This document shows positions 12,739 through 57,613 of a stretch of DNA of 64,000 nt, in pieces. The DNA lies in assembly GCA_047967505.1 (NCBI GenBank), contig CM106538.1, one strand, 5' to 3'. The notes under the pieces are model-generated. The model had not been told where the DNA came from. It did no database searches and saw only the letters and a list, made by a program, of their open reading frames with translations. Positions within the stretch are counted from its first letter, which is position 1. Every line of letters starts with the position of its first letter. This DNA comes from Dipteris shenzhenensis (taxonomy: Eukaryota). The translations under genes and the position numbers were made by a program.

Positions 12739-15700
12739 ATGGCATCCTCTTCCATGTCTAGAAAGGAGTTTTTTTAGCATTAAAAAGTTTGATGGGACAA
12801 ACTTTTCTTTGTGGAAAGAACAAATAAGGGATGTGCTTATTCAAAAGAAGCAAATTAAACCCTTGGCAGGGATTGAAGCTAAGCCTACAAATATGTCTGA
12901 GGATGATTGGAATGAGTTGGATGCATTAGCAAAGTCTACTATTAGACTTCATCTTGCAGAGTCAGTTTATTTCACAGTAGTAAATGAGCAGACTACGGAA
13001 GATGTGGAAGAAACTGTGTGCCACTTATGAGAAGGAAACTGCCTCTAATAAAGTTTACCTCATGAAGAGGTTGTTTGAGCTGCAAATGAAGGAAGGGGTC
13101 TCCATTACTTCTCACTTGAATGAATTCAATATTATTTTCAACCAGCTTCAGGCTCAGAAGATGAATTTTGATGTGGAGACTAAGGCAATATTTCTCTTAT
13201 GTTCATTGCCATCCTCATGGGATACCTTCCGTACAGCTGTCAGTAACTCTGCACCTAGTGGAGTACTGAAATTTGATGATGTTGTGGGTAGCTTGTTGGC
13301 GGAGGAGATTAGACGGAAGTCTATGGATGGCAACAAGCAGGATGCAGCCTTAAATGTGCAAAGTGGCAGATCACAGTTCAGGGGGAAGTCCCAAGAAAGA
13401 GGGAAGTCTCGTAGCAAATCCAGGGCATGGAACATTGAGTGTTACCATTGCGGCAAGAAGGGCCATATGAAAAAGGATTGCTACAAGCTGAAAAGAGAGC
13501 AAAAGGATAAGAAAAAGAATGCAAATTGGGGTGCAAATCAAAAGGAAGAGAGTCCAAGGGAGGACAAAGGAAAAGTGAAGATCGAGGAGATCAATGCAGT
13601 CACACATGATAGTGACAATGACATTCTCTTCATGTCTAGTTTATCTATAGAGTTGCTTACCACTTCAAATGATGCATATTCCCAGGATTGGATTTTGGAT
13701 TTTGGTGCTTCATTCCATGTTACTCCCCATAGGGAATGGTTCTCCACTTATGATAGTGGAAAGACAGGTTGTGTGCATCTTGGAAATGACTATGCATGTG
13801 ACATAGTGGGAGTAGGTGACATAAAGTTTTCTTTTGCAAATGGGTCTGCATTTGTTTTGAAACATGTGAGACATGTGCCTAAGCTGACCAAGAGTCTTAT
13901 TTCAGTGGGTCAACTAGATGATGCTGGTTTTCACACCACTTTTGGCTTTCAGAGTTGGAAAATTCAGAAGGGCTCTATGCTTTTGGCCAGGGGTGCCAAG
14001 TGTGGGACTTTGTATCCCTTACATGTATCAGGGGTATTTGATCATGTTGTTGTAATAACCGCGCAGCCAAGCACTTCTTTGTGGCATTGCAGGTTGGGGC
14101 ACACGAGCCAGAATGGAATGAAACTCTTATGCTATTTGGGTTATGTACCGCATTTGAGTTTCTCTGATTTTGAATTTTGTGAGCATTGTCTCTATGGGAA
14201 GCAGACTAAGTTAGCCCATAAAAGAAGGGGAAAGAAAGAGTTTGAAATGCTTGATTTGGTGCATTCAGACGTATGTGGTCCCATGCCTACACGGTCATTA
14301 GGCGGAGCTGAATACTATGTGACATTCATTGATAATGCAACTAGGAAAGTGTGGGCTTATGCTATAGCTCGGAAGAGTGATGTGTTCCAGGTATTTCAGA
14401 AATGGCTGGCCTTGGTTGAGAATCAGTCAGGTAGAACACTTAAATGCCTATGGATTGACAACGGTGGAGAGTATCTCTCTCATGACTTTCAGCATTTCTG
14501 TGATACACGTGGGATTAAGAGGGAGCTCACATCCCCTCGTACTCCAGAGCAAAATCCAGTTGCAGAAAAGATGAACCGTACCATTCAAGAAAGGTTGCAA
14601 TGCATGCTTTCTAATGCAAGTCTTTCTGGTGGTTTTTGGGCTGAGGCAATGAAGACTGCAGTGCATGTGATCAATAGATCACCTAGTAAGAGTTTGGATG
14701 GTGGTATTCCTGAAGAGGCATGGAGTGGCAAGAAGCCCTTTTACTCTCATTTGCATATATTTGGGTGTGAGGCATATGCACATGTGCCAAAAGAGCTTCG
14801 AAAGAAGCTAGATCCTAAGTCTAGGAAACGCATCTTTCTAGGTTATGGTGAAAGTGGAGAGATGGGCTATCGTCTTTGGGATCTAGAAGCAAAGAAGATC
14901 ATACGCAGCCATGATGTAGTCTTCAATGAGAAGAAGATGCATAAGGCACCCATGAGGGATGTAGAAATGAGGAAAATCACTTTCCAGGATGTGAATCCAC
15001 CTGCATATGTTGATAGACAGCAAGCTATCCATGCACCAAATGTGCAAGAAATGGTACCACCAAGTACTCCCACAGGTATACAATCAAGGGTAGATGATGG
15101 ATCATCTATTGGTGGAAATGATGAGCCAAATGTGGCTAATATGCAGGTGGGACAGCAAGCTGAAATGCCCTTGAGAAGATCATCTAGAGTGTCTAGACCA
15201 CCTGATAGGTTTGTTCCAGGGGTAGACTATGTGATGCTTACTGATTGCGGGGAGCCTTCTTGCTACAGAGAGGCTATGATGCATGAGGATCAACGCAAGT
15301 GAAGTGGGAGTATGCTATGCAATCAGAGATGAGTTCACTTATAAAAAAGAATAAGACTTGGGACTTGGTTTCTTTGCCACATGGAAAGAACGCATTGCCA
15401 TGTAAATGGGTTTAACAAATGGTCACAGGTGATGATGTGCCTAGGTACAAGGACCGTTTGGTCGCTAAAGGGTTCAAGCAAGAGAAGGGTGTGGACTTTG
15501 ATGAGATATTCTCTCCAGTTGTGAAGATGACCACACTTAGATGCATGCTTGGACTAGTGGCAGCTCTAGGATATGGAGCTTATGCAGATGGATGTCAAGA
15601 CAGCTTTCTTGCATGGGGATTTGCATGAGGAAATTTACATGGTGCAGCCAGAAGGCTTTGAAGAAAAGGGCAAAGAGCATTTAGTTTGCAAGCTGAAGAA

Positions 15701-16809
15701 GAGTCTCTATGGTCTTAAGCAAGCACCTAGAGAATGGTATCAGAAGTTTGATGCTTTCATTCGGTCCCAGGGTTTTAGAAGGAGTGAAATTGATCACTTC
15801 CTCTACACTAAAAGGGCTAAGGATAATAGCCTGATAATCTTGGCACTATATGTGGATGATATGCTATTGGCTAGCAAGAACACTTATGAGCTAGATGCAT
15901 TAAAGGCCAAGTTGCATGAGGCCTTTGATATGAAGGATTTGGGACTTGCAGGTCATATTCTTGGTATGCGCATCATGCGTGATCAGAGTAGGAAACTCCT
16001 TTGGCTTCACAAAAAGAGTATGTTACAAAAGTATTGCAGCGTTTCAATATGGAGGGGGGGAGGCAGTGAGTACTCCATTGCCTCCATATGTGAAACTGAG
16101 TCATACAGATAGTCCCAAATCAGATGAGGAAAGGGCCATGATGGCCAAGGTTCCTTATGCATCAGCAGTTGGGAGTCTTATGTATGCTATGATAGCTACT
16201 AGACCAAACATTGCATTTGTAGTGGGAGTTGTTAGCCAGTATATGGCTAATCTAGGAAAGAGGCATTGGGAGGCAGTTAAGTGCATCATGAGGTACATGA
16301 AGGGTACCAAGGAGATGTGCATTTGCTTTGGTAAAGGAGACATGCGTGTACTTGGGTACACAGATTCAGACTATGCAGGAGGGCATGTGGATAGTAGGAG
16401 ATGCACTTCTGGTTATGTGTTCACCTTTGTAGGTGGTACAGTGTTGTGGATGTCTCGTGCACAGAAGTGCGTTGCTTTGTCTACCACAGAGACTGAGTAT
16501 GTTGCAGCCACAAAGGGTTGCAAGGAGGCTATATGGCTTGATTGGCTAGTGGGAGATTTGGGGATTCATACAGGTATACCGACATTGCATAGTGATTCCA
16601 TGAGTGCTATTTAGCTAGCACGGAATCCGATCTTTCATGCAAAGACCAAACACATTGAGGTCAGGTACCATTTCATCAGGGAGGTACTTGAGGACAAGCG
16701 CATAGAGCTTGTCAAGGTTCATACACATGATAACCCTGCAAATATGCTGACGAAGAGTTTACCTAGTTAGTGGTTTGAGTATTGTCGTGTATTAATGGGC
16801 ATTAGATAG
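12739..16809 (+). pseudogene. Copia gag-pol of B (gag, CCHC knuckle, PR, IN, RT, RNase H), disrupted
   Basis: ORFs 12809-13030, 12984-15302 (CYHCGKKGHMKKDC, WILDFGASFH, HSDVCGP, IDNGGEY), 15573-16112 (LYVDDML) and 15946-16614 (GYTDSDYAG); several frameshifts and stops. Confidence 0.95.
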
Positions 16810-20944: not shown

Positions 20945-23900
20945 GAAAGAAACAAAGAAAGAAAGAACTATTAACATCCGCAGGAGGCCTTGTGGGCCTA
21001 TGGGACCAAGTGCGGAATACACCAAAAGGGAAAAACTCATACAAGCCACAAAGGGCTAGAGCAAAGGGTGCATTAAGGCCCTTGCTGAGTACTATGTTGA
21101 AATAAAGAGCTCAATGGCTCAAGTATAAAACATGTCACATCATATCATATCATGTACTATCTGAAGTATGATGAGAGCTAGAACTAGAACTGGAACTTTG
21201 AATATGAAACTCGGCACTATGGTGGCTCATCTACGAGCGACAAAAATGTCTCATATCTATGTCTATCTGGCTGTCTCATGCTATGGTGGTAGAGGGGGAT
21301 GTTGTCTCCTTGATCTATGAACTCGCTAAGCTATGTTCAAAGTGACCCCTCATCACGATCGGTCTTCTCTAAGGAAAGATCTTATAGGTTGGGGACCTCA
21401 ATCTAGTGAGCTCTGGAGCTGACTCAAAGGCATAGAAATATGTGACATGCCACTGTGTCTAGTTAGCCTCTATATCATGTGGTCTGGTCATCTCTTGTTG
21501 CTCCCTGATCCGTTATAATAGGGTCTCCATGTGTCAGCGCATCTCAAGTAGATAGAGCTCAATGTAGACCTGCAGACTTGGTCATGGAAGTGGTTCAATC
21601 ATGACAGCAAGCTAAAGCCCCTCTCATCCTGATAGAGATAGTTGTATTGCCCTGGACCTTGTAGTAGGTTGGGTAGATGCAGAGAAAGTGCTCCTCTGTC
21701 TCAATCACTCTTAGTGTGCATGGCATGCAGATCCACTACTCTTTGGGTATACATTCTACTCTCCATGTCTTAATCCTCAGCTAATGCGCATCTACCCAAT
21801 GGCGATCCTTAGTTCATGTGAGACTCCTCTGTCATCAAGAACTAGGGTTTGATGATGAATCCCTCCTCTAAGACTCTCAGGAAGTGGTCGCGGTAGAACT
21901 AGGTCTTGGTTGGGAGCTTTTGATCCCCCCAAGTTCGAGATGTGTGGAGTTGGAGGAGGTCTAACTATATGATACGGTTAATCTCATCTTGCAGGATTGA
22001 CTCAGGGGGTGCATCCATATCGATATTGTACTAAAAGGGAGGGAGCATGCCCTTTTGAATCCTATGTCTGCCAAACCATGTGGATATACATGCATACCAT
22101 GTGTTTGCCCTGATCTCAGCTAGTTGTCTAGATGACTCCAGAGCCAACCTCGGTAGTTCTCCAATGGGGTAAGTCCCAGACTCTATGAATGAATGTCACT
22201 GTCTAGAAGATGGCATCAATCTATAGTGGTGTCATGGTGAACTCTGCCTGTACTATCTCATGCAAGACTAAGGGCCTGATCCAAATCATCCTACCACTCT
22301 GCTATCGGTAGGTCACATCCCTAGAAGGGTGTTGCATACATGGCAGTCGGTCAAACTAGCATATCAAATAGCTAGCACTTCATTGGTGGGTCCTGAAAGT
22401 GTGCATGGATGCATTGTCTCTATAGCAGTTAGGCTAGAGTACCCTGCCCTATGTGAGTTGTGCATGGGCTGTATGTGTCATAGTGAAAAGGGGTCCTATG
22501 AAGATTGTTCCTAAATAGGTGTAAGACTACACTATCTCCATTGGCTCGTCTCAATAAGTGAAGCTGAGTCGACGGAGCACTACATGTGAGGTGTTGAAAA
22601 CCATAACCTTGGTCTTCCCAAGGTTGACTTTCAGGTCTCTCTCTCTACAAAACACCTCTAGGGCCTTCAAATGTCTTTGCAATCCCTCCATTGAGAATGA
22701 GATAAGGACTATGTCATCAGCATATAGCAATATCTGTATCATGAGATCAGCTAGTAGTGATCCTTCACCTCCAAGGCTATCTATGAAGGAAGTGATCTCA
22801 TCATTGTAAAGCCCGAAGATGGTCGGTGAGAGGGGGCAACCCTCGAAGGCATCTATGAAGGAAGTGATCTCATCATTTTGTAAAGCCTGAAGAGGGTCAG
22901 TGAGAGGGGGCAACCCTGCTTGACTTCAATCGTACTCTCAACCCAATGCGATAGACCACCTAGGGCGCAAGCTCTGCCTCTGTGACTGACTCATACAGGC
23001 TCATCATCCCCATCTCAGTGTCTCTAGAATCTGTAGCTCCTGTATTCTCCAGATCATGTGGGACTGTGGGGTAGTGTCAAAAGCCTTCCAAAAGTCTACA
23101 AAGCATGTGTAGACCTTCTGGTGTTTGGACTTCATCTCCTCAATCATAGTGAAAATGTGATTTATGGTAGAATGCTATCTCTAGAATCCTACCTTCCCTA
23201 GTGCCCAAGCCTCTGTATGACTATTGAGCTCCCTCTCTAAGACTGATCCATAAATCTTGGCTAGAGTGTGGCCAATCATGAGGGTACGGTAGTTCCCAGT
23301 CTCCATAGGGTCTCCAGCTTTGTGTATCATCACAATAGGGGTAGTGCTCCAAGCAGGTGGGAAGTCGTGGCACACAGCCCAGTTGAACATTTGTGTTAGG
23401 ACCAAGGCTATGACCTCCTGTCCATATGCAAAGTGCTCATTCCATAGGCCCTCATGGTCCTGCACTCTCCGATTGTGTAATTGTCAAAGTGCAACCCATA
23501 CATTATGTGTGGTGAACAAGTGGCAAGTGGTGGGCTGGCATAGAGGACATATCCGATGGTGTTTGCATCTACGCATCATAGAGGTAACATGCATAGGTGT
23601 GCCACACATCTAGGTCGATGATGGAAATAGGTGTCTTTCCCTCCGATAGAAACCCCCATCTAATGATTGAGTTTCCTCCTTGAAAAGATCTGACAATATT
23701 GTCCATCCTATGTGTGAGGAAGGCCCGCCTCTTACAATGTGTCAATTGTTGAAATATCCTCTGTGTCTCGCGTGGCATCATGACCCAAAGCCCGTTCCTA
23801 TGTCGAGTGGGCTCTCTCCTCTCTACACTCGTCATCAAACCAAGGGTTTTGGGGCATCTTCCCAAAAAGGATAGCCACCCCCATGGAGCCTCGTACTCCA

Positions 23901-32499: not shown

Positions 32500-33836
32500 G
32501 CATACCAGCAGCATTGGAGGCTGGAAGAAGTCCTACTGGACCCCCTGGCAGTCCTTTATATAGGCTGCCTAGGGGCCCTAACTTCAAAGAGTCTGGTAAG
32601 CTAGATGGGCACAAATTACCCCATCTGGAAGGTAAAGTTATGGAGTCACCTTGTGGCCCGGAAGCTTTGGAAGCTCACGATGGGAGTGGACGCAAAGCCA
32701 GAGGATGTTGTAGATCACAAGGGCAGGATTCTAAATCTTGATGCCGGTGGACAAAGATGAACTCGAAGCATGGGAGGATAGAGATTCCCATGCCTTGGCT
32801 TTAATCATAGGGACGACGACGGACTCTATGATTCCTCATATCAAGATGGTTGACTCGTCAGTGGAGGCGTGGGCCACTTTAAATACTTGTATGAGACAGA
32901 TCACACTTCTCGTATCTTGACTCCAGCATGAGCTTGTCAATATGCACATGAATGAGGGAGAGTCAATACTTGACCACTTGACGAAAGGTGAAGTGGTAAG
33001 AGATCAACTGGCATTGGTTGGTCAGAAGGTGGACACCTGTCAGTTGGCACTCTTGACACTCGGGAGTTTACCACACAGCTTCAAGGGATTCGTCACCACT
33101 GTGAGAGTAGAACAAAGGACCAAGCCTTTGAATTCGAAGAGCTTGGGCCCTTGCTACTACAGGAGGAAGCCCAGGAGAAGTTGTACAACAAGGACAATGA
33201 TAAAGCACTTTTGGCGAAGGACAAGCTCGGTAAGGGCAAGTCCAAGGACTCCAAACGACGCAAGGCCAACAACTTGGAGCAGAAAAAGAAGATAAAATGG
33301 TTCTACTGTGAAAAGCTTTGTCATTATGCGAAAGACTGCCGGAAGAAGAAGGTGGATCAAAAGAAAAAGGAGAAGTCTCATAGCAAGGAGTAGCCTAAGA
33401 CAGACGCATCAACGTCACTATTGGAGAGCTTTTCTTGTGCATAGAGCACTGCTTTGCTCATATAGCGAGTGACCACAAGGAGGCTTGGTATGTGGACAGT
33501 GGTGCCTCAAAACACATGTCCAACAAGTAGTGGTTCAAGACCATGGAGGGAATCCATCTCGACTCGAAGGTGACCGTAGGGGATAGCTCGACATGCCCTA
33601 TGAAGGGGGGTTGACAGCATTCCTTTCATCACTACAGCACGAGAAGAGAAGGTTAGATTCAGTGTGCTGTTTATTCCAGACCAGTGCAAGAATTTGCTCT
33701 TTGTGAGTTAGATGGATAAGCATAAGATGTTAGTACTCTTCGAGAATGGGGAAGTACCGCACTTCCAAGGAAGACGGTCAGATGGTGGCCCAAGGTGTCG
33801 AGGACGACGGCTTATACCAATTACATGCTTTAGTTG
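32500..33836 (+). mobile_element. Copia fragment C1 (gag-PR), degraded
   Basis: GKLDG..YPIWKVK, MNEGESILDHLTK, knuckle WFYCEKLCHYAKDC, WYVDSGASKHMS. Confidence 0.85.
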
Positions 33837-34140: not shown

Positions 34141-36097
34141 CCATGTTTCTAACATGGTATCAGAGCCACCTTTTATAGCTTCCACGTCACCCTTGCCCTA
34201 ACCCTAATTTGTCACTCTTGCCCTAACCCTAATTCTGCTTCAGCCTCCTTCTCCATAGATTGCTGCCTCAATTCCGCCTCTATCTGCCCCTCCTTGCATC
34301 CATTTTGCATTTGTTTCTGACCTTACAGCCAGCCGCCTCTATTCAAGCTCTTGTGGAGCACTAGGCGACCTATTCCCTACTGGCCTGTGCGTTTTCTTGG
34401 AGGTTTTTTTTTTTTTGCCGAAAAAACAGTGCTAATTATATTACTTCGAGAACAAGATACAAGAGGTCAGCTTATAGCTGACGGCTGCGTTCACAAATCG
34501 GACGCAGCCCTAAAAGGTAGCAAAATAAACCATCCTCTCACGGAGGGATAAGACGAGTATGAATGAACAGCCATCGGGGTGGTGAGTAATGCCACCGAAG
34601 GCCCTGCGTAGTCTGCGCGAAGAAGAGGCCCTGTGTGTCCCAAGCCCGGAGGAAGCGTCTCCGCTTCTCCTGACCGGCCCGGGAGTCTCCCTGCGTTTTC
34701 TTGGAGGTACCTGCAAGGTGTGAAGGTTTTCGACGCCAAAACTGTCTTTTATTGCTGCTGCTGTGAAGTCGGCCACCTGGCAGCATTCTTTCCAGTAATT
34801 CGAGGTTTTTGAAGGTTTTTTTGACTTGTTTTGAGGCTACTGTTGCATTTTCGAGCTGGTTTGAGAGTGTTGCTGCAGGACCGCCTACTACAGCAGCATT
34901 TTTGGAGCTGTTCCTGGCTTCCAGCTCATCTACAACAGTCGGTTTTCATTGTGGTGGCCTACTACAACATTCAGAGTTGTTCTAGGGAGCCGCCAATCAC
35001 TTCAGAGAACTGCTGTTGCGCTTTTGGAGCACCTACAGCAACCGCCTTTGGACTTTGGGCGCTGCTGTGTGTATTTTAGAGCATTTACAGCCACCGCCTA
35101 TCTGCTGCGAACATCTACAAGAGCTCTGAAGCATTCGAAGCTGTTCCAGGGAGCCGCTTTTCACTTTGGAGCTGTCCTGCGTCATCTCGAGGTGTAATCT
35201 TGCTGCTTTTTCATTAGGGTTTGCCTTTCCGGACACCCTCTTGCTGTGTTTTGATCAGGGTTTACATTTTGGAGCCTCCGAGGCTCTTCTTCTCATTCGG
35301 TGACTCTCCGATTGGCACATTGAGAGTCATGACATGCTGTCCCTCGGTAGCTGCTCCTATGGCCTTCATCGACACATCATTTGCGGGAATCCTTGCCTGG
35401 TTCTTCACCGACATACCTCTTCGCATCAGGATGTGCACACTCTTGTGCGGTAGCTACTTCGGGATCATGGGTTCTCAGCCCTTGCTATGCATAAAATGAA
35501 TGAAAATATTTCTATGTTTGAGTTAAAGGTTCTCGGCCTTGAGTAGTCCCTCTAAAATGAATGTTTGAAGAGTCAATAAGAGGTCCTCTGTCCTGGGTTA
35601 TCCCCCAAAAATGATTGTATTGTGTTTAACTTTGGTCGATGGTATTGACCACCCAGTTCAAAGTAAGGGGGGATGACGAGTGATGGTTTGCCCTTGCCGG
35701 TCGCAAGCTGACTGAGAAGTCACTATGAGACGGGAGGTGTTGGATAGTTGGACTTGCTCTTTGTAGTATTGCGGTGGAGGAAGGATTGGTCTACTCTTGC
35801 GTGTTGCATCTCACACCTCTTTGCTATGAATGGGGGTGTTGGCAATATCATAGCCAAAGAGTGTGGTGATGTGATGTGTTAGTGTGAAGTACTAGGTGAT
35901 CTACTACTAGTCTATGTGTGTGAGTCATGTGTGAGTGCCACGTGTCATCATGGGACTTATCCCATATGCACTAGGTGCTAGTGTGTGAGTGAGTAGCCTA
36001 TATAAGGCTTGTACTTCACTTGTCTTGTCATACTTGATGAATGAATGAGAACCTTTTCATTATGTCTTCATTTGTGCATCATTCCCTCACACCCTAA

Positions 36098-36128
<31 letters not shown>

Positions 36129-36143
36129 CACCATGTTTCTAAC
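33837..36143 (+). mobile_element. Non-autonomous LTR element D (TRIM/LARD-like, about 2.3 kb, non-coding interior)
   Basis: LTRs 33837-34154 and 35837-36143; PBS TGGTATCAGAGCC 34155-34167; PPT ATGAATGGGGG before 35837. No retroelement domain inside and no matching TSD. Confidence 0.88.
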
Positions 36144-36639
36144 TCAGTCTCCTGGCCCTTCTTTGGTGCAGCCCTTGCCTCTTTTGCTCTTCGGTCTACC
36201 TCTATTGATAGAGGCAACAGAGTTGCCTCTCCTTCACCTTCTTCAAGTGCGGGGATTCTTCGTATTCCTTTGCCAGGCTTGATTCATAGGAACTCCTTCT
36301 CCATACTTGTAGATTTGGTGGATATTGGGGAGGAGGAGTTTGTACCCTTCACTTTTGGGAATGCTATTTTGGGAATCCCTATCGACAGGGCACCCCCCTC
36401 TACAGGTGTAGGGGTTCTTTCTCCCATGGATTTTCCTCCCCTTGGCGAGTAAGAGTCTACCTAGGGTAGGTTTGTTTCAGCTACCAGGTCAGGTAAGATG
36501 TTTCATCTGACTTCCTTGCATGGATGATGATTGTTAGTTGGAACATACAGGACGTGGGTGGTGTGCCACATCACTATCGTAGGCAGCTGATTCATATTCA
36601 GCCCCATCTAGGTGTTACTAGGGGCCCCATTGATATTCT

Positions 36640-37490
36640 TTTTGTTTAGGAGCACAAATTGGATACCAGAGATTGTGCCAAATCAGGAAAACTTCTATCA
36701 CTGGAAGACAGGTCTACGAGTGCTGAGGTATCTGAAGGGTACTTGCACATACAAGATGGCATACACTACTGGGATTGAGATAGGCTGTGACTCAGATTGA
36801 GCAAGTGACAACGACACCAGGCGTTCGACTTCAAGGGCCATTTCCTAGCTGAGCAAGAACCAATCCTAAGTTGTCCTTTCTTCTACAGAGACGGAGTACC
36901 GAGTTGTGTGCACTACAACATGCCAAACATTGTGGCTTAGGTGGATACTTGAAGATATGGATACCTTTTGATTAGCCTTCTCCTTTAGTGCTAGCCTTCA
37001 TCATGGCTGAGTCTGCCCTTCACCTCCGGAGTGCCGACAGAAACTCAGTACGAAGACTTTGTATAAATGGATGCTTAAGTATGTGTGGGTGTGTGGATTT
37101 GTATGTGTGAGAGCATATTTTTATACTATGGTCTACACCCACTATTGGGCGCTGATGACGTCAGTGGGGATGTCATAGTAGCTAGTCCCTGCTATGCATG
37201 ATGGAGTTCATGGTTTTCAACCTTGTGAGTGACTATCATGAGATTGAAACTGCACTATGTTGTGTTTTTAGAGGATGAGTTTGGGAATGTTCCTGGATTC
37301 ATCTAGGTATATGGACGTGTTTTAGGAGGCGGCGATGGTGATCATGTGCGACAAGCAAAGTTGCATAGCCATCGTGAAGGACCCATTGTTCCATGCATGG
37401 ACGAAGCACATCGACGTCCATTACCACTTCGTACGAGAGCTCATCATTGACGATGTCCTAGAGTAATGTACTGTCTGAATGCTCATAACC
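36640..37490 (+). mobile_element. Copia RT-end/RNase H fragment, interrupted by a 350-bp insertion
   Basis: RVLRYLKGT, DNDTRRSTS, WLRWILEDM|..VIMCDKQSCIAIVKDPLFHAWTKHIDVHYHFVRELI. Confidence 0.85.
36961..37310 (-). mobile_element. 350-bp insertion with ATACCT/AGGTAT ends and a short flanking duplication; decayed hammerhead-like motif
   Basis: Removing 354 bp restores the RNase H frame. The duplication reads either ATGG (4 bp) or ATATGGA (7 bp). The minus strand carries TATAAAAA. The insertion itself is well supported; the ribozyme reading is speculative. Confidence 0.7.
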
Positions 37491-37518
37491 TTTTCGACCA
37501 GCTCTCCCACAGGAGCAA

Positions 37519-38390
37519 ATGGAGCTCCTCGGGTAGGGGGAGCATGTCCTATTGGACCCCCTTGCAGTTCCTTCTTTCACTATCCCTAACTTTGGAGGGT
37601 TCGGGAAATTGGATGGGACCAATTATCCTATCTAGAAGGTGAAGATCCGGAGTCATTTAGTGGCTCGAAAATTGTGGAAGCTGACAATGGCAACAAAGGC
37701 GATGCCGAAGTGTTGGACAAAGAGGGGACGATACTTGTACCCATAGATGGAGATGAACTTGAAGGGTGGGAGGATAGAGATGCCCAACCCCTGGCCTTGA
37801 TTGTTGGGACAACGGCGGCTCAGTAATTTCTCATGTAAGATGACAGACACATCAGTAGAGGGGTGGGCCATTCTGAAGGATTTGTATGAGACAGATAATA
37901 CATCTTGCATCTTGACTCTTCAGCGTCAACTCTACGACTTGGATATGGATGAGGGAGATTCGGTTCATGACCACTTGACTAAAGTCAAGGTGGTGAGAGA
38001 TCAACTAGCATCGGTTGGGAAGGTGGAATCAAGCCAGTTGGCCTTGATGGTACTTGGGATGCTACCACGCGGTTTCAAGAGCTTCGTTACGACTGTGACA
38101 GTAGGACAGATGACCAAACCTCTGACCTTTGAGGAATTGGGTCCTTTATTGCTATAGGAAGAAGCTCGGGAGAAGCTCTATAACAAAGACAACGACAACA
38201 AGGCGTTATTGGCAAAGGATAAGGCAAGCCTAGCGAAGGCAAGTCCAAGAAGGATGACTCTGGAGATGAAGAGGACACTTCTAGTAAGAAGAGGAAGCAG
38301 AAGAAGAAATGCTTCTATTGTGATGAGCCAAGGCATTTTGCGAAGGATTGTAGAAAGAAGAAGGTGGATCAAAAGAACAAGGAGTCCGAC
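37519..38390 (+). mobile_element. Copia gag fragment C2, same family as C1
   Basis: PNFGGFGKLDGTNYPI*KVK, MDEGDSVHDHLTKVK, CFYCDEPRHFAKDC; collinear with 32570-33390. Confidence 0.85.
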
Positions 38391-38917
38391 GGTGGTGCCA
38401 TTTGGTACTACCTTGGATGGACATGTGTACTAGGATGGTTTGTTTGTGCAAGACCAGACGTGGGGGAGCAGGAGCCATTGGTTGAAAAGCCAGGAATCAG
38501 AATTGACACCGGATTGTCCCAAAGGGTCTGATCTTGGGAGCTGTTGGGCTGTTGGGCCGAGATATGTCGGTGAGAGGGGGTGTTGGAAAGGTCACCTCCC
38601 CATCTGTAAGCCAGCAAATGAGGAGAGCATGGGGGAGGGAGACCTAGGGCAAGATCTGCCCAGAGAAAAGAGGGAGAGGGGGCCGCCACATGGGCAGCAC
38701 TTCACAGCAAACAAAGGCGGGATTGTAAGGCAAAGGCACACTTGTGGCATGGATTGTGGGCAGGCTTATGGCCTGCAACAGGCCCAGGACCAACGCAGGG
38801 AGAACAGCAGCAGGGTCAGCCAAAATGAGTGCTGGTTGGGCTGGTTGGAGCCAGCCAACCAGGCCCGTGATGGAGCGGACAAAGGGACTGGGCCCCCGCA
38901 TGGAGTGAAGGGTCAAA

Positions 38918-41900
38918 TGAAGGTACGATTGAGAGAGAGAGTGTATGCAGTACAGGACGAGTCGAAGATGATAGTCACACAAACTTAGATAGATGGATAA
39001 CGTTACTAAACACAAGTATAAAGTACTTGTATCTAGGCCTAGGACTAAGTGTCCTAGGTGTCACATAGGACTATGTGTCCTATGTGGCATAGAAGGCACT
39101 AACACAATAAGTGTCTACACTTATGCCTACAAGGCACATACCATGGCCTATAGGGCATCACTAGAACCAGCAAAGGATGGCCTACAAACCCCCCTCCATG
39201 GGATGGGCTGAAGTATTCTGGAAACGTCTCAGAATACCTGGTAGTTTCTGGTCATGGTGGCACATGTTCATCCAAAAGGATATAGCCACCTATGAATGTA
39301 CAAGGAATGTCAGATCATGTAACAAAGGGAACCAAGTGTAAAGCCTGTCGGAAGACTTCGAACTTGGGACGAGGAAGTGCCTTTGTAAACATATCTGCGA
39401 TGTTGTCCTCTGTGGGAAGATAGGACAACTCTATGTCGCCTGCTGACAACCGCTCCCGAACATAATGATAGTGAACTTCAATATGCTTGGTACGCGCATG
39501 AAACACTGGGTTACGCGCAATGGCCAAAGCACTCTGGCTGTCAGTGTAGACAATAGTGGAGGATGTCTGGCAAATACCAAGATATGTAAGTAACTGTCAA
39601 AGCCAAACACAATCTACTGTAGCGGTGAAGGCTGCCCTGTACTCAGCCTCACAACTAGACGTGGCAACTGTCGGTTGCTTCTTGCTGAGCCAAGAAATAC
39701 ATGAATTGCCAAGCAAAAAACAATTGCCAGTATGTGACACTCTGGTGTCGGAACATCCTGCCCAGTCACTATCCGTGTAAGCATGCATGGTAAGTGAACC
39801 CTGATCACCATAGAAGAGGGCTAAATCCTGAGTGCCTCTGAGATATCTGAAGACTCTTTTCACTGCCTGCCAATGCTGTGAACTGGGCATGTGCATGAAT
39901 CTGCTGAGCTGAGATACTGCATACTGCAAGTCAGGTCTGGTGTGACATAAATAAATAAGGCATCCAACAGCCTGCTGATAAAGAGTGATATCACATGGTG
40001 GGCTCCCATCATGAGCTGAGAATTTGAAGCCAGGGTCCACTGGAGTAGAGATTGGCTTGCAATCCTCAAACTGAAAACGATCAAGGAGCTGTCCAATATA
40101 CTTGGACTGAGACATCATGATACCCCCCTCAACATGAGCAAACTGAATGCCCAAATAATAATGGAGCCGTCCCATGTCTGACATGTCAAAAATCTGCTGC
40201 AAATCAGCTTTGAAAGCTGCAATTTGCTGAGTATCGGGGCCCGTGATAAGCATATCATCCACATATAAAATCAGCACTAAAAAATCAGATCCACTCCCAC
40301 GGAAATAAAGAGTGGGTTCTGTGGGACTATTCTGAAAACTAAGGGATAGTAAGTGTGCATGAATTTTGGCATACCATGCCCTGGGTGCCTGCTTCAAACC
40401 ATAAAGGGCTTTTCTAAGCCGGCATACCTTATTTTCAGAATTAACAACCTCAAAACCAGGAGGTTGAGTGACATAGACTTCTTCCTGCAGATCCCCATGA
40501 AGAAAGGCAGTCTTGATGTCAAGTTGGTGCACTTGCCAATGATGATGGGCTGCAATGGCAATGACACATTGAATGGTAGTAATCCTGGATGTGGGAGCAA
40601 ATGTCTCCTCAAAGTCAATGCCTTGTTGTTGGGCATACCCTTTTGCAACAAGACGGGCTTTGTATCGATCTATGCTGCCATCAGATTTTCTTTTTAATTT
40701 GTAGACCCAACGCGTTCCAATGGCATGCTTGCCAGGTGGAAGATCTACTAATTCCCAAGTGTCATTTTTGGCAATAGATTGTAACTCAGCTTTCATTGCA
40801 TCCATCCACTCTTTGCTGTCAAAAGCATCTTTATGGCACAAAGGCTCTTCATTGCAAGCTGTAGCAAGGAGTGCAAACTCAAGAAAGTGACCATGCTGTC
40901 TATTCCCTGATCTTGTCCGGGCAGCAAAAGGCTGATCTTGTTTGCTGTCCCTCAATGTATCAAGAAGCCATCTGGGAACTTGCCTTTGCTGTCTATTAAC
41001 AGCTCTTTCTTCAAGGACTGCATCATGAGTAATGGGATCATTTGGTGCCGGAAGAGAAGCCTGCAAATCAGCATGAGGTTGAGGCTGATTATTGCTTTGT
41101 GGAGGGCCTACAGGAGGCGCATGTTGCTGCTCAAAATCTTCTTCTGATGATGGTAGAGGTAACCAAGATTCAAAGGCATCAAACATGTCAATATCTGGCT
41201 TTGCTTTGCAGTCCACAAGAGGAGAAGCTGAATGTTCAGCAAAGATCACATCTCTACTGACAATAATCTTCCCAGTATTTGGTTGATATAACCAATACCC
41301 TCTGCTCTCCTGGCTGTAACCAATGAATATGCATTTGATTGCCTTGTCATCAAGCTTATGTCTAAGCTGAGATGGTACATGAACATACGCAAGAGACCCA
41401 AAAACTTTCATGTGTGAAAGTGAAGGCTTCCTGCCTTTCCATGCTTCATAAGGTGTCATAGTCTGTAATGCCCGCGTAGGTGATCTATTCAGCACATAGT
41501 TGGCACACATTACTGCATCAAGCCAAAATTTATTGGGCAAAGACTTGGCCTTGAGCATGCATCTGGCCATCTCCATTGTGGACCTGTTTTTCCTTTCAGA
41601 AACAGGATTCTGCTGAGGAGTGTAAGGAGTAGTGCATGAGTGAATAATGCCCCGTGAAGAAAGAAATGCATCAAACTCCTTTGACATATACTCACCCCCC
41701 CTATCTGTGTTGAGGGTGACAAGCTTGCAGCCTGATTCATTCTCAACCATGTTCAGCCATCTCTGAAAGCATAAGAAAACTTCAGATTTGGCCTTTAAAG
41801 GATATATCCAGCAATACCTTGTGAAATCATCAATGAGAGTCATGAAATACTTGTATCCTCCAATGGCATTTGTCCTCATTGGGCCACAGACATCACTGTG

Positions 41901-44900
41901 TACTAGCTGCAATTTCCTTTGTGAGAGTTTTGGACAATTCTTTTGAAAAGGAAATCGATGCATCTTACCCAAAAGACAACCCTCACACACATGTTTAGAA
42001 ACTGTGTGAGTCTGAGGTACATCATTAGCCATCTGGTGTGAATGCAGCTTTGCAAGAGCTCTATAATTTAGATGGCCCATTCTCTCATGCGACAGATGAG
42101 TTTCAGCAAGCTGTGAATCTGAAATAGCCAATGCTTCGGTGTAAAGTGCAGCTGCATGATGATCAAGGTGATAAAGCCCTTTTCGCAAGGTGCCAGTGAG
42201 AACTATGGCATTGTCATCACGAAGATCATATACTAGGCATCTGTAGCCATAAAAAATTACTCTGAAACCTGAAGTAGCAATTGCTGAAATTGAAATCAAG
42301 TTGACTTCAATTCCAGGCACAAAAAGAACATTTGTCAGAGTGACAGGATGACTGGAAATGGATGTGAGCTGCACATCTCCAACTCCTTTTACAGCATATG
42401 AAGCATTATTGGCACATGTAACAGTCCCCCCTCGAGGTGCATCAGCTAAAGAATGAAACAACTGTCTGCAAGATGTGACATGCTTGGAAGCACCACTATC
42501 AAAGTACCAGGACTGAGCATCATTAGAAGTAAAAAGTGCATCAGCTTTGGAGGGATCAAATGAGCAATGGACAGCCCATGCCCAATCATCCTGAAGAGCA
42601 TGTGCATGTGAAGCATCTGCAGGCTCATGGGATTCAATGGCATGTGAGGCATTAGCTGTCAATCCTGCTTTCTTTTTCTCCGAAGCAATGCGCTTCTTGC
42701 ATTCTGAAATGTCATGTCCAGGCTTGCGACAATAATTGCATCTTTTCTTCTTTCCCTTATCTGCTGTATTTTTAGATGCATGAGAGGAATTGCAGCTGCT
42801 ATGCGTAGAGGAATTGCAGCTGCTGTGTGCAGATTTTGGCTTGCCCATAGGCTTGGGAGCCTTGCCTCTTCCTGTTTGCTGTGAAGCAAATGCATGATCA
42901 GGAATAATTGCTTGTCTGTTAGCTCTACTTTGCTCTTCCTGCAAAAGCAAAGTAACAAGCTGATCAAAAGAATAGTGGTCTGGATTACCCATGGCCACTA
43001 ATCGAAGGGTTGTAGCAAACCCTTGATATGTATCTGGTAGTCCATTCAATTTAGTACTGACAAGCTGTGAATTTGGCACCACTTCATCAATGTTGGCAAG
43101 CTGTTCCATGAGGTCCTTGACCTTTGTCAAATATGCATCCATTGACTCACCTTCATTCATATTCACTTCCTGTAATTGCCTTCTCAAATATGCAACACGA
43201 GCTTCATTGCGAATCTGATATAGAGAAGCCAATTTATCCCAAGCATCCTTTGCTGTCCTGCAAGAACGGATGTGTGGAATAATGATTCTCTTGCATGATA
43301 AAGCAATGCATGAATGTGCATTTGCATCTCTTGCATCCCATCTAGACTGTTCTTGAGTTGGAAGAGCAACAGCAGAAGTGCTAGAGGAAAAGGCATCAGA
43401 AGTAGTACCACCTGCAGAAGGTGCAGCAGTAGAAACAACCACTGAAGGATTGGCTGGCCTCAGATCAGCCCCAGAAACAATATTCCACAAATGCTTTGCA
43501 ACAAGAATATGTTTCATGAGATAAGCCACATCGGATAGTTGGTGCCATCCAACTTATCATCTTCACGAAGAACTCCAAATAAATCTTGATTGTTCCCAGC
43601 CATAGCAACTGTGATAACTTGTAAAAGACCTGAAAACCAAAAAGCCTCAAGGCTATCACTGCAATAAGCTGGCGGTCCAAAAATGACAGCAAATATCTGC
43701 AAATTTCTGACCCAAATCAAAGGGCAAATGTAGATCTGACCCAAATGTGATTGTGACAGGCAATGTTCACTGCAAAAACAGCAAATTTGGCAAAAGCCCC
43801 AAATTTATTGAGGGCAAATAAGCCAAAAAGAGGGCAAATTCAGAAAAGCCCCAAATCTTGCTGAAATTTCGCAAATGTGACCCAATGTATGCAAATCTGA
43901 CTCAATGTCCTGCAAATCTGACTCAATGTCCTGCAAATGTAACTGAATGTCCTGCAATCTGATTTAATGTACTGCAATCTAATGCAAAAACAGCAAATTT
44001 GGCAAAAGCCCCAAATTTATTTAGGGCAAATAGGCCAAAAAGAGGGCAAATGTGTGAAAGCCCCAAATCTTGCAATGTCTTGCAAAAGCCCTGTAGATAA
44101 ATTCGCACTTCGAAATTGTACAAAGCACTCGGGGCAGGTACAAGCTGTACGGTCAGCTGTTCTGAAAGTACGTGTACGAAATGCAGGTACAAGTTGTACG
44201 ACGGTTGATCTGCAGGTGTACGTACGGAGCAGATGATCGTACGGAGCAGATGAACCTGTACAAAATAGATACGGTGCTAGTACACCTGTACGGAGAAGAG
44301 CGTACGGCTGTCACTGTAGATGCTGATTCCGTACAGCAGGAGTATTAAATACAGGTACGGAAGGTAGTACGGCAAAGTACAACAAAGTACTTAATGCGTG
44401 ATACCACTGAAGGTACGATGGCGCACTGCAGGTACGGCGTACGGCGAACTACCACTGAAGGTACGTGATGACGCAGAATACGGAATACGTACGGAAGGTA
44501 CGGCGAAGCAGGAATGCAGTACAGCGATGCAGCGTGCAGGTACAGCGCGTAGGTACGACGGAGCAGGTGCGACGGGTACTGCAGGAATCTGTACGCAAGT
44601 CCGTACAATCGTACGGATGGAGCGCAACTTCTTGGAATCTGTGTGTGATGCAGATCCGGAGGCAGGAGAACAGATCCAGGAGCACTCTGATACCACTGAA
44701 GGTACGATTGAGAGAGAGAGAGAGAGAGAGAGTGTATGCAGTATAGGACGAGTCGAAGATGATAGTCACACAAACTTAGATAGATGGATAACGTTACTAA
44801 ACACAAGTACAAAGTACTTGTATCTAGGCCTAGGACTAAGTGTCCTAGGTGTCACATAGGACTATGTGTCCTATGTGGCATAGAAGGCACTAACACAATA

Positions 44901-53093: not shown

Positions 53094-56000
53094 ATGGCTG
53101 ATTTTGTAGACCTCGAGCTTGCGATGGGAGACGAGGATATGAACTACCATGCGGAGGATGACAAGGGGCTCTACGATGATTTGATTACGAAGATAGCCTT
53201 CAATGAATTCACCACTGCTCTTGATGAAAAGTTTGAGCAGGTTAACACGAATCAAACTGAGTTGATACAGCAACTCCAAGGGATTCAGACTATACTCACA
53301 CTTTTGACTAGCACTGTTTAGGCACTCACGCATGTGGATGCCATGGCTTCAATGTTAGGTCTGAACATCCCTCCAGATCCTTTTCTTGAAGATCATAAGT
53401 CTCATACCAAGGAGGTTGCTAACACTTGGTTGCACAAGTGGCAAGTATACTACCAATTTCACCCTTTTCCAGATGACAAGAAAATACAGCTTGCAGCAGG
53501 GTTTATGTCAGAAAAGGCTTTATTGTGGTGGAAGGAACTCTGACCCAAGCCTACAACATGGATAGAATTCGAAGGGGTCTTCAGGAAAGAGTTTCTGAAG
53601 AAGCAGGAAGATTATGATATATTAGGCAAGCTCAAAGCCGTCGATATGTCCAAGCTGAATCTGACTTTGGAGGTTTATCTTTAAAGGTTTCGGGATTTGT
53701 AGACCAGAGCTATAAAGATGGATCCAGTGACCTTGTTAGGTTTCTTTGTGGATGGTTTGCCTGACTCGTAGAAGTTATAGATCAAGAACAATAAGTGCAC
53801 CACTTTGCAAGAGGCCATGAATTACGTGCGCATCTATGATGATACCATGGCCAGCACAAAGGGAACCACAGTTGCCGACACGGGTGGGAAGAACAAGAGG
53901 AAGTTCTTCCAGTCTACTACTGGTACCGGGGAGTCAAAGTCTATAGACAAAGCCTCCAAGAAACATTTGACTCCAGTGAAGAATGGTCGTGCCTGTTTCC
54001 TTCATACATTGAAGTTAAAGAAAGGACGTTGCTTCATATGCAAGCAGCAGGGCCACACTAGGAATGATTGTCCTAAGCGCAAGAATCAAATGCAAGCGTC
54101 GGGACCGAAGCTCCATGCGGATCTAGGTACCAAAGCTAAGGGAGCTAATCAAGTTTCGATGATAGGTATTTCTGTAAATGTCATTACCTGCTCACCTTCT
54201 TGTAATTGCACTTTTAATAATTCGTTATTTGGTTCCCATGATCTTTTCCGAGTTTATGGAGAAGTTAGGGACCAAAGAGTTCACATTCTTTTTGACCAAC
54301 TTTGTTAATTACAAACTTGTGTAGAAGATGGGGTTGTCCACGATACCTAGCGATCACACCTACGAGGTGCAGCTTCCAGTTTGGAAGCAATTTTGGAATT
54401 GCAAGATTGAAGTACTTTCTATGCGGATTCAAGGCTACACAACTGCTCTTACGTGCTATGTCATGTACTTGAAACATGTGGACTTGTTAATCGGAATTGA
54501 ATGGTTTAAAACCCACGATATTTGGATTGGATGGAAAGAGCATACCCTTTCTTTTTTGGATAAGGACATCCAATTTTGTATTCAGTGTGATAATATTCCC
54601 TCTTCTCAGGGACCTATTGTATTTGCAATGTAGCTTCGGAATATTATAAACACTTCTCATTATGATGTGTATCAGTGTGTTTTGATTCCGCTTTCTTCAT
54701 TTGTTGTATCTGTTAATAACAAAAATGATTTAAGTGTGTTTGAACACCGTGAATTGAGAATGTTGTTGGATGATTTCATGGATGTATTCCCTGCTCTACA
54801 GTCGGAAGGTTTACCTCCAGAACGGGCAGTAGTCCATCGCATAGATTTAGTACCTAGGACTCAACCTATTAGTGTTCCACCTTATAGGATGAGCCAGCTT
54901 GAGGAGGATGAGTTAGCTTCATAGCTACAAGATTATCTGAATATGGGCTTATATTCGCCCAAGTAAATTACCTTGGGGCGCACCTGTGCTCTTAAGAAAG
55001 AAGAAAGATAATTCGTGGAGAATGTGTATAGATTATAAACGATTGAATAAAGTGACAATTAAGAATCGATACCCTCTTTCTCGTTCCGATGATTTGATAG
55101 ACCGTTTGGCCAGAGCGAAGTATTTCACTAAGATTGATTTGCGTACGGGTTATCACCAAATTAGTATCTATGCTAGACACATAGATAGAACCACATTCCG
55201 AACTAGGTATGGCCACTACGAGTTTCTCATATTACCTTTTGGTTTGACCAATGCTCCTGCCACCTTCCAACAAATGATAAACGATTTGTTTCATGATTTT
55301 CTGGGCAAATTCGTTGTCGTGTTCTTAGATGACATCTTGGTATATAGCCGAACGCTAGAGGATCACATTGGACACCTTCGGATTGTCTTAGTTATTCTAA
55401 GAAAGCATAAGCTCTATGCCAAGATGAGTAAATGTGACTTCTTTATGAAGGAGATCATTTACTTAGGACACAAGATTTCTTCTCAAGGTATTAGCATTGA
55501 TCTGGATCGTATCTAGAAGGTTTTAGAATGGCCTATCCCTTAGACTGTGAAACAACTTGATTCTTTCCTAGGATTCACAGTTTTTCTACGGAAGTCTGTG
55601 CGTGATTATTCACACATCACAGCACCCCTAACCAACATATTGAAAGGTCGTGGACGCAGGTCTAACTAGCCAATCTCTTGGAATGATGCATTGCACAAGG
55701 CTTTTGAAACCTTGAAGTTAACTATCAAGGAAGCACCTGTTCTTACATTACCCGATCCTACCCGGCCTTATGTTTTAGAGGCCGATGCAAGTGATTTTGC
55801 GATTGGGGCAGCTTTATTCCAAGAGGGCAGACCTGTAGCTTTTAAGAGTAAGAAGCTAGACGACAACCAATATCGTTGGCCCACACTAGAAAAAGAACTC
55901 TATGCGGTTGTGTATGCTCTGAAGGTTTGGAGACACTATTTGTATGGTTCAAAGTTTCTTGTATTGACCGATCACCAGTCAATCAAGTACGTGGACGGGT

Positions 56001-57613
56001 CTGAATTAAGGGGATGAAAGGCTAGATAGGCAGAGTTAATGTAAGCTTTTGATTTTGAAATTCGTTATCGAAAGGGTTTGTTGAATAGTATGGTGGCCGA
56101 GTCAAGTTTGTAAATGCTATGTCATTTACAAAAATATCCTCAGACCTATTTCAATCCTTGAGAGGGCTTTGCGCAACTGATAGTCATTTCAATTCTTATT
56201 GGCAGAAAGTCGTGGATGGGAGCTCCATGGTTGACCAGGACTCGGGGATTGTGCCACCTACGGTACAGGCGGCAGGAGGTCAGGGATGATTAGGAATGGC
56301 TTGCTGTTCCAGAATGGAAAGATATGTGTGCTAGATGTTTCGGATCTTCGATTCAAGATTCTCTAGGAGTGTCATGATGCTCCTAGTGCTAGATATTCAG
56401 GTATACATCAGACTCTGTCTCTTGTGAAGCATATCTTTTATTGGCCTAAGATGCGTGTATTTATTGAAAACTCTGTGGTAAGTTGCTGGGTTTGTCAGGT
56501 TACTAAGGCAGAACGCCTTAGAAGCGCGGGTTTGTTACAGCCATTGCAAATCCCAAGTAAAGTATTTCCATGGATTTTATTACGGGTTTGCCTAGAACGC
56601 GCAAGGATCATGACTCCATTTGGGTCATAGTGGACCGTCTGACAAAAATGGCTAGATTCTTACCTACGAGAATAACCATCTCAGCTGTTCAATTGGCTCA
56701 CGAGTTGTGGACCACTTGTTTAAGCTGTATGGTTTGCCGTCTGACATAGTCAGCGACAAGGACTCAAAGTTTACAAGTAACTTTTGGACACTGGTTTTTG
56801 AGAAGTTGGAAACTACTCCAAGTATGAGTTCCTCAGATCACGCACAATCTGATGGCAGTATAGAGAAGGTCAACCAATTGGTTGAAGATATGCTTCGGGC
56901 ATATGTTTCTAAGAGACAGTATTCATGGGAAGATTATCTACCTATGATAGAATTTGCTTATAAGCAAAGCATTCAAGTATTGGTTACAGTCCTTTTATGC
57001 TTATGTACGGGTTTCAACCTAAGTCACCAGTTATGGTTGGGTTAAAGGGAATCCAAAATGATGCTACAACGACATTCTTGCAAGACATGCAAGAAATGTT
57101 ACAGTTTGCCAAGGAGTCTATTAGAAGTGCCCAAGATCGGGACAGATTTTATGCTAATAGACATCGTTCACCTAGAGAGTTCACTGAAGGAACGATGGTA
57201 TATTTGCATATTCCCAAGGAATCCAAGAGCCTAAGTACTGGTTTGGTTCCGAAGCTATCTCCCAAATACTGTGGTCCGTTCAAAGTTATTAAAAGAATTG
57301 GAGCAGTTGCATATAAACTAGAATTGCCTCCTGATGTTAAAGTACATCCCGTATTTCATGTCAGTAGACTGAAAGAGTTACTGGGTGCGGATGATGAACT
57401 TGTTTCTCCTCAAGAAATACAGATTTGACTTTTATTCCACATGAACCTGCGAGTATTCTTGAATTTCGTGAAAGACAAATTCGTAATAGAACTATCACAG
57501 AATACAAGATCAAGTGGAAGGATCGTGTTGATGAGGAATCAACATGGGAGACATTACAGAATCTCCTGAGGACATTCCCCGGTTTTTTAGCGAACTCAGG
57601 AGTGATTTCTTAG
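53094..57613 (+). pseudogene. Gypsy gag-PR-RT-RH-IN-chromodomain of H, disrupted
   Basis: [75 protein letters not shown]; chromodomain EPASILE...EYKIKWKDRVDEESTWE (57425-57613). Confidence 0.95.

Follow-up and report, generated by a model that had tools for sequence, protein, structure and literature searches.

Does the short insert that interrupts a dead Copia element in this stretch of Dipteris shenzhenensis DNA carry the remains of a self-cleaving ribozyme, or is it a copy of a more ordinary repeat? The whole stretch analyzed here (64,000 nucleotides, referred to below as the window) is eukaryotic DNA rich in transposable elements. The earlier note on it read the joined ends of the insert as a decayed hammerhead ribozyme belonging to a non-autonomous family that moves via a circular or tandem intermediate. 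The analysis presented here points elsewhere: we consider it fairly probable that a highly repeated retroposon has left an ordinary, truncated copy of itself inside a dead Copia, with no working ribozyme.

The insertion into a Copia relic

The insert lies in a decayed Copia relic (36612–37466, plus strand) that comprises RNase H and C-terminal coding sequence and contains several stops, as revealed by translation and by BLASTP against the intact Copia of the window. Residues from 36696–36800, in the left part of the relic, match the intact copy (39600–43553, minus strand) with an E value of 3e-5, and residues from 37326–37466, in the right part, match the C-terminal piece of the intact copy with an E value of 4e-17. 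A direct repeat, ATATGGA, is visible at 36955–36961 and again at 37309–37315. When 354 bp are taken out, the RNase H frame of the relic is restored (...WLRWILEDMDVF*EAAMVIMCD...), and the restored spacing from WLR to the D of CD/TD is 22 residues, equal to that of the intact Copia ORF. The repeat, together with a restored frame that has the spacing of the intact copy, confirms an insertion with a short target duplication. In this respect the earlier note was right, both in stating that the insert splits a Copia RNase H whose frame is restored by removal of 354 bp, which the repeat, the translation, and BLASTP bear out, and in taking the element to have arrived by insertion, which the ATATGGA repeat, as a short target duplication, bears out.

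The bounds given previously (36961–37310) require correction to 36962–37308 or 36962–37312. The left ATATGGA copy (36955–36961) is the target-site duplication, of which 3–7 bp are real, as judged from the Copia frame restored on 354-bp removal. The first four bases of the right copy (37309–37315), ATAT, also match the 3′ end of the repeat family described below, so that the duplication proper is anything from GGA to ATATGGA. The element spans 36962–37308 (347 bp) if the whole of ATATGGA counts as target duplication and 36962–37312 (351 bp) if judged by where the alignments of other copies stop.

The window holds several other elements. A near-intact Copia polyprotein (39315–43553, minus strand) consists of a 1318-aa frame with gag, a protease-like barrel, integrase, and RVT_2, followed after one stop (39597–39599) by an RNase H tail of 93 aa that reads in the same direction; its nearest Atlas clusters are labelled Streptophyta, a label that comes from the few members with a taxon record. 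Further Copia copies or pieces lie at 12984–16611 and 61708–63998 (both plus), 7794–8162 (minus), and 32921–33292 and 37801–38528 (both plus), and a second Copia gag starts about 330 bp beyond the relic in which the insert sits. A fragmented Ty3/Gypsy element (53781–57428, plus strand), split over at least eight frames, retains a zinc knuckle, an aspartyl protease (weak match), RVT_1, RNase H, an integrase zinc finger, and SH3_Tf2-1. An additional RVT_1 fragment (22554–22925, minus strand; motif ILLYADDIVLIS) is 28% identical over 40 residues to the reverse transcriptase of the Gypsy element, and this low likeness suggests that it is probably a LINE remnant; its tail is unlike the insert.

A repeat family with a fixed right end

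The repetitive nature of the insert was assessed with Logan contigs of four coded public runs (X1, X2, X4, and X5), which were aligned on 36500–37800 at a likeness of at least 80%. The contigs aligned number 820 in X1, 543 in X2, 18 in X4, and 159 in X5, and their cover is confined to 36962–37312/13. Summed word depth, which is not equivalent to copy number, amounts to 5.5e4–1.05e5 over 36984–37291 in X1 as compared with 0–9 on the adjacent Copia bins, and to 6e3–1.8e4 as compared with 0–38 in X2. In X1, 290 of the 820 contigs are at least 99% alike. Hundreds of distinct contigs restricted to the insert indicate a heavily repeated, young family that is present in several organisms, consistent with the earlier proposal of a multi-copy, non-coding mobile family. 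The inserted copy thus belongs to a very abundant repeat family (36962–37312; plus probably the sense strand). The window contains no second copy of the insert by blastn with a word size of 7, and exact family patterns gave 0 matches in metagenome, viral, and genome contig collections.

The two ends of the insert differ in kind: the right end is a terminus of the family, and at the left end the insert is truncated in comparison with other copies. On the right, separate contigs cease aligning at 37311–37313 in X1, X4, and X5, and the letters behind 37312 are diverse (agreement of 0.42 among 16 contigs in X5; three different continuations in the table of joints). On the left, a break at 36962 is forced for every contig because the window has Copia sequence there; the letters that overhang before 36962, however, agree with one another (0.94 among 5 contigs in X1) and resemble those of X4 and, less closely, those of X2. 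This mutual likeness indicates that many copies continue leftward past 36962 into conserved sequence. The view that the ends of the insert are the ends of a unit is not supported, as other copies run past 36962 into sequence that is unlike the other end of the insert. Local alignments of this leftward sequence with the Copia flank or with the insert are no better than those of shuffles (p 0.24–0.97), and on this basis we rejected both the end of a preceding tandem unit and a homologue of the Copia flank as its identity. A 30-nt upstream consensus of the other copies is absent from the 64-kb window.

Further information on the behavior of the family comes from joints within contigs, of which 15 of 34 are listed; at 80% likeness, such joints can come from repeats or from other organisms. 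Tandem copies are absent from the window, and the listed joints include three in which the complete right end (37312) is followed by 15–29 other letters and then by a restart within 37237–37264 (at 37264, 37250, or 37237); these restarts represent left-truncated copies in the orientation of the first. One X2 contig joint runs back from 37281 to 36966. A head-to-tail junction, 37312>36962, is not among the 15 listed, and these joints lend no support to the circular or tandem intermediate opened in stem III that had been proposed. Among the 24 loose ends listed of 487, overhangs of low agreement lie before internal places and behind them in a ratio of about 9 to 3. Depth across the insert is roughly flat, without a rise toward the 3′ end, which fits a SINE and not a strongly truncated LINE family.

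In another X2 contig, a Copia-like stretch ending at 37447 is followed by 15 other letters and then by the element from 37006 onward; this joint represents a second, independent insertion adjoining Copia RNase H-like sequence, in another organism. Many contigs of the family also skip internal parts within 36998–37290, and skips of 58, 99, 109, and 71 bases were each seen twice. Their recurrence suggests that the family has deletion variants or short repeats inside it, and some may be artefacts of joining at 80% likeness.

Hammerhead-like strings and a plus-strand hairpin

The strings and pair counts on which the hammerhead assignment was built are all present on the minus strand. Its 3′ end reads GACTCAGC-C-ATGATGA-A-GGCTAGC-(13 nt)-GCTAATC-AAAA-GGTA and its 5′ end reads (ATA)TACCT-A-GATGAATC, giving a stem I with 6 of 8 pairs and a stem II with 6 of 7 pairs, one of them G-U. 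String scans place the 5′ half at 36962–37013 (minus strand), with stem I at 37013–37006, AUGAUGA at 37004–36998, the arms of stem II at 36996–36990 and 36976–36970, AAAA at 36969–36966, and GGUA at 36965–36962. The 3′ half (37296–37309, minus strand), which is usable only with the ends joined, consists of UACCU (37309–37305), A (37304), and GAUGAAUC (37303–37296); on the plus strand, 37296–37304 is the 3′ arm of the terminal hairpin discussed below. What was described as a perfect palindromic stem III is a pair of 5-nt inverted ends, TACCT/AGGTA, placed together, with a zero-length loop for a 348-bp unit and a 3-nt loop (AGGTA-ATA-TACCT) for a 351-bp unit that has the right end of the family.

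In terms of the catalytic core, the CUGANGA box (C3–A9) is replaced by AUGAUGA at 37004–36998 of the minus strand, GAAA (G12–A15.1) is replaced by AAAA at 36969–36966, and an extra A follows A9. The substitutions of AUGAUGA for CUGANGA and of AAAA for GAAA are two lethal core changes. The earlier note attributed the core mutations to decay of this particular copy. An X4 contig of 559 nt with different flanks covers 36962–37313 with 5 differences in 352 bp (98.6% identical), and these differences coincide with 37000, 37013, 37076, 37144, and 37209, the positions at which the 14.3-depth contig of X4 differs. The X4 contig is unchanged at 37004 and at 36966–36969, and the A at the C3 place and AAAA are thus kept in an independent copy. 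Because both core letters are common to this copy and no majority variant at 37004 or 36966–36969 is listed in any of the four runs, they do not reflect decay of the copy in the window. The variant rows listed are those that reach about 44% or more in at least one run; minority variants may be present among 65 weaker rows, and a majority change at the two core places would presumably have appeared among those listed. The only common change within the core box, 37000 A>G, accounts for 86% of the depth in X2 and for all of it in X4; it falls on the free position N7 and gives the X4 copy AUGA(C)GA. As far as these data reach, then, the family keeps neither CTGANGA nor GAAA, the outcome that had been named in advance as evidence against the ribozyme.

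We further investigated how readily such strings arise by chance. A partial core, defined as CUGANGA with at most one mismatch, a gap of 0–1 nt, a 7-bp stem II with at least 6 pairs, and GAAA with at most one mismatch, turns up at 51 separate sites in the window, both strands counted (20 block shuffles: mean 23.7, range 16–31), and the partial core of the insert is not more than chance. A search for the full motif under equally loose rules gave 2 linear sites in the 128 kb of strand (13062 and 49786, both plus); among 20000 randomly drawn 351-bp pieces, 58 contained it once their ends had been joined (first box within the final 170 nt). The complete joined motif is therefore uncommon by chance, but the thresholds were fitted post hoc to this single candidate.

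Predicted folds do not favor the ribozyme either. Shuffled sequences fold as well as minus-strand 36962–37030 does (z +0.55), and the best fold of this stretch lacks the proposed stem II. With the ends joined, the hammerhead-like three-way junction is worth −2.1 kcal/mol for the 348-bp circle and −4.2 kcal/mol for the 351-bp circle, whereas the best folds of the joined forms reach −9.6 and −11.7 kcal/mol (z −0.38 and −1.09), leaving the hammerhead-like fold 7.5 kcal/mol worse than the best. No favored three-helix fold surrounds the core with a UH cleavage site, and the helices exist only with the ends joined. Rfam hammerhead models gave no match, even at E ≤ 10, on either strand of linear 36000–38300. 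Pairing of the leftward continuation with AGGTA to form stem III is also not kept in other copies, as read from loose ends: X4 has AACT for ACCT, and X2 has no pairing. With a broken core, a disfavored joined fold, and no linear Rfam match, the claim of a hammerhead ribozyme is not sustained.

Motif scans of the plus strand revealed no hammerhead motif. A perfect CTGATGA at 37152–37158 of that strand was considered and rejected, having no GAAA in reach and no stem II; it is part of a near-palindrome around TGACGTCA. That string (37156–37163) is followed by CCAAT (37148–37144) and TATAAAAA (37125–37118) in a promoter-like order on the minus strand, and the last of these locates a string that had been reported earlier from inside the insert. 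CCAAT is private to the copy in the window, as 37144 A>G holds about 99% of X1 depth; within TATAAAAA, 37119 T>G holds 44–46% of depth in X1 and X2.

A stable structure is predicted on the plus strand at 37273–37304, where a 14-bp stem with an AUGU loop and five G·U pairs is followed by an 8-nt tail, AGGTATAT. This hairpin has a folding energy of −16.8 kcal/mol (z −4.04; 0 of 200 shuffles as good), compared with only −6.4 kcal/mol for the minus strand, and sits 8 nt from the fixed right end. The tail beyond it is AGGTATAT only, with no poly(A) or simple repeat beyond ATAT. The five pairs that are not Watson–Crick are all G·U when read on the plus strand, and this suggests a structure of plus-strand RNA. 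In “stringent” LINE–SINE pairs, a 3′ stem-loop is recognized by the reverse transcriptase of the partner. By its fold and position, 37273–37304 is probably the 3′ recognition hairpin of a retroposon RNA. Plus is then the probable sense strand of the family, and the hammerhead-like strings probably lie on the antisense strand. Given an antisense location, the need for a junction that is not seen among the listed joints, and two lethal core changes common to other copies, we judge the hammerhead likeness to be, on balance, a chance resemblance with no part in the movement of the element; this judgment goes together with the retroposon reading set out below.

A probable truncated retroposon and its rivals

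Taken together, the terminal hairpin, a 3′ end that is fixed, a 5′ end truncated at varying places, and a short duplication that has ATAT microhomology fit target-primed reverse transcription (TPRT) of a plus-sense retroposon; for the two ends, the evidence comes from the subset of loose ends and joints listed. We therefore favor, with some reserve, the interpretation that the insert is a 5′-truncated, plus-sense copy of a young, very abundant, non-coding retroposon family that entered a TA-containing site of a dead Copia by TPRT. In such a scheme, the 3′ terminus of the RNA (...AGGUAUAU, just after the G·U-rich stem-loop) would pair with ATAT at a nick, cDNA synthesis would then stop, or the cDNA would become joined, at 36962, and a target duplication of 3–7 bp (GGA up to ATATGGA) would be left behind. 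We infer the three steps, like the sense strand and the mechanism, from the features of the insert and its relatives. As to class, the element may be a SINE, the tail of a LINE, or a Penelope-like derivative that is non-autonomous.

Several properties of the family are reminiscent of SINEs and LINE-tail retroposons: it is short and non-coding, has very many copies, a fixed 3′ end, and 5′ truncations, and the insert has a short duplication of variable length, microhomology at the 3′ junction, and a stable stem-loop near the 3′ end. Unlike these elements, the insert has no poly(A) or clear simple-repeat tail and no visible tRNA-like head; ARAGORN found none in 36500–37800, and the 5′ part of this copy is missing. 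A partner LINE with an insert-like tail is absent from the window. Other classes were tried on the ends, and neither Helitron ends (TC...CTRR) nor LTR ends (TG...CA) fit them.

The background on retrozymes and Penelope hammerheads given in the earlier note agrees with the portions of the literature drawn on here (PMC4918200, PMC7761336, and PMC8557442). Plant retrozymes are described as having two hammerhead-bearing LTRs of 300–400 bp (type III), a center of 300–600 bp, a PBS and a PPT, and a 4-bp duplication (PMC4918200, in excerpt). The insert resembles them in being near the size of one such LTR, in being non-coding, and in having a short target duplication; it differs in lacking a type III hammerhead, in having ends that are not LTR-like, and in a duplication of 3–7 bp instead of a defined 4 bp. 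No second direct repeat, PBS, or PPT of a plant LTR retrozyme is present in the window.

Penelope-like elements require closer comparison. According to sections of PMC8557442, they are found in the green lineage, with some of those in streptophyte algae at very high copy number, and exhibit 5′ truncation, partial tandems, an optional tail of 30–40 bp, and microsatellite targets; short palindromic stems III are typical of their hammerheads, and in its supplementary hammerhead table (for example acc/ggt) every row has ctga... and ...gaa. Minimal type I hammerheads without a real helix III are reported in Penelope pseudo-LTRs, where they may act as dimers, and animal retrozymes are described as tandem units of 150–300 bp (both PMC7761336, in part). 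A 2026 preprint derives animal retrozymes from Penelope pseudo-LTRs (10.64898/2026.07.22.740005, in part), and an anole element whose hammerhead is mutated remains able to insert in vitro (PMC11167929, in part). Set against these accounts, the insert family is like Penelope-like elements and their derivatives (pseudo-LTRs, Chlamys/PLE-X, and animal non-LTR retrozymes) in its 5′ truncation, apparent partial tandems, and optional extension at one end, and also in a TA-type target bias and in high copy numbers such as are reached in some streptophytes. It is unlike them in lacking a canonical core (A for C3, A for G12), in a motif split between its ends, and in the probable antisense orientation of that motif. 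No canonical minimal type I hammerhead was found on the sense strand of a pseudo-LTR. In the window, reverse transcriptase matches are to Copia, Gypsy, and one LINE-like fragment, and none of the 111 ORFs of at least 90 aa, each scanned at least once at E ≤ 0.001 or looser, contains a GIY-YIG or recombinase domain; the linked Penelope reverse transcriptase/GIY-YIG or tyrosine recombinase that the earlier note proposed to look for is not found among these ORFs. Strings of 11–18 nt from the insert had 0 hits in the supplement of PMC8557442, which holds tables and protein sequences, not DNA consensuses.

It follows from this literature that a weak form of the ribozyme proposal, in which a dead hammerhead relic sits in a Penelope-derived family, stays alive at a low level of probability. 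The insert would then be a minus-sense, non-autonomous Penelope-like or retrozyme-like derivative whose hammerhead was already dead in the master copy, and the conserved leftward extension past 36962 could be an optional Penelope-type tail. We regard this as quite unlikely. The scarcity of the full joined motif among random pieces (58 of 20000) speaks for it, as does the fact that the right end of the family makes stem III a hairpin of 5 bp with a loop of 3 nt; the partial tandem joints at the right end and the TA-rich right flanks in contigs are in keeping with it. Canonical hammerhead Penelope-like elements with a palindromic stem III (ACCGGT) are described from a streptophyte alga and spike mosses, and in some families (TA)n is the preferred target and copy numbers are very high (PMC8557442, in excerpt), while the anole mutants indicate that insertion in vitro can proceed with a mutated hammerhead (PMC11167929, in excerpt). 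However, all of the approximately 40 rows of the PMC8557442 table keep “ctga” and “gaa”, both of which are broken here and in the X4 copy, and the cleavage half is found at the opposite end of the element, across a junction absent from the 15 joints listed of 34. The leftward continuation does not retain stem III (AACT for ACCT in X4, no pairing in X2), the plus strand is indicated by both the G·U hairpin and the truncations on the left, and no Penelope reverse transcriptase or GIY-YIG was found in the window. A more specific version, in which the family is a streptophyte counterpart of animal non-LTR retrozymes that carries a minimal hammerhead as a fossil (A3, A12), its palindromic stem III lying across the unit junction, and was amplified to very high copy number without self-cleavage, seems to us slightly less probable still.

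Two further explanations concern the way in which the DNA itself was placed, and we consider each of them about as improbable as a Penelope-like derivative. The perfect 5-bp inverted repeat TACCT...AGGTA, flanked on both sides by TATGGA, would suit a small MITE-like DNA transposon with a 6-bp target duplication, as would a short, non-coding, abundant family. Terminal inverted repeats are usually about 10 bp or more, however, far above 5 bp, and inward of these five the ends align poorly; other copies align 3–4 bases further right, to 37312/13, and 36962 is not a family terminus, as other copies run on into conserved sequence. The reliance of the hairpin on G·U pairs also points to RNA, not DNA. 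Filler DNA would instead be a piece of the repeat, for example of an LTR or promoter-bearing unit on the minus strand, copied into a double-strand break, with the ATATGGA repeat arising via microhomology. The ATAT common to the target and to the end of the repeat is consistent with such an event, as are a copy that ends where others continue and the TGACGTCA and TATAAAAA motifs on the minus strand. Insertion at staggered nicks, however, normally leaves just such a signature, a clean direct repeat (here of 7 bp) with all target bases retained, and this fixed right end recurs in several other left-truncated copies; the ends do not read TG...CA, and no conserved continuation, such as a primer-binding site, follows 37312.

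A real ribozyme at this locus would have extended retrozyme-like elements to a new group of the plant lineage. As it stands, the case illustrates how easily AT/GA-rich repeats give rise to loose hammerhead-like strings, and how any insert yields a “palindromic stem III” once its inverted ends are joined. The truncated retroposon copy favored here belongs to a sharply bounded, very abundant family common to several related organisms, which could serve as a marker for annotation and dating, and its G·U-rich 3′ stem-loop offers a lead to the autonomous partner of the family.
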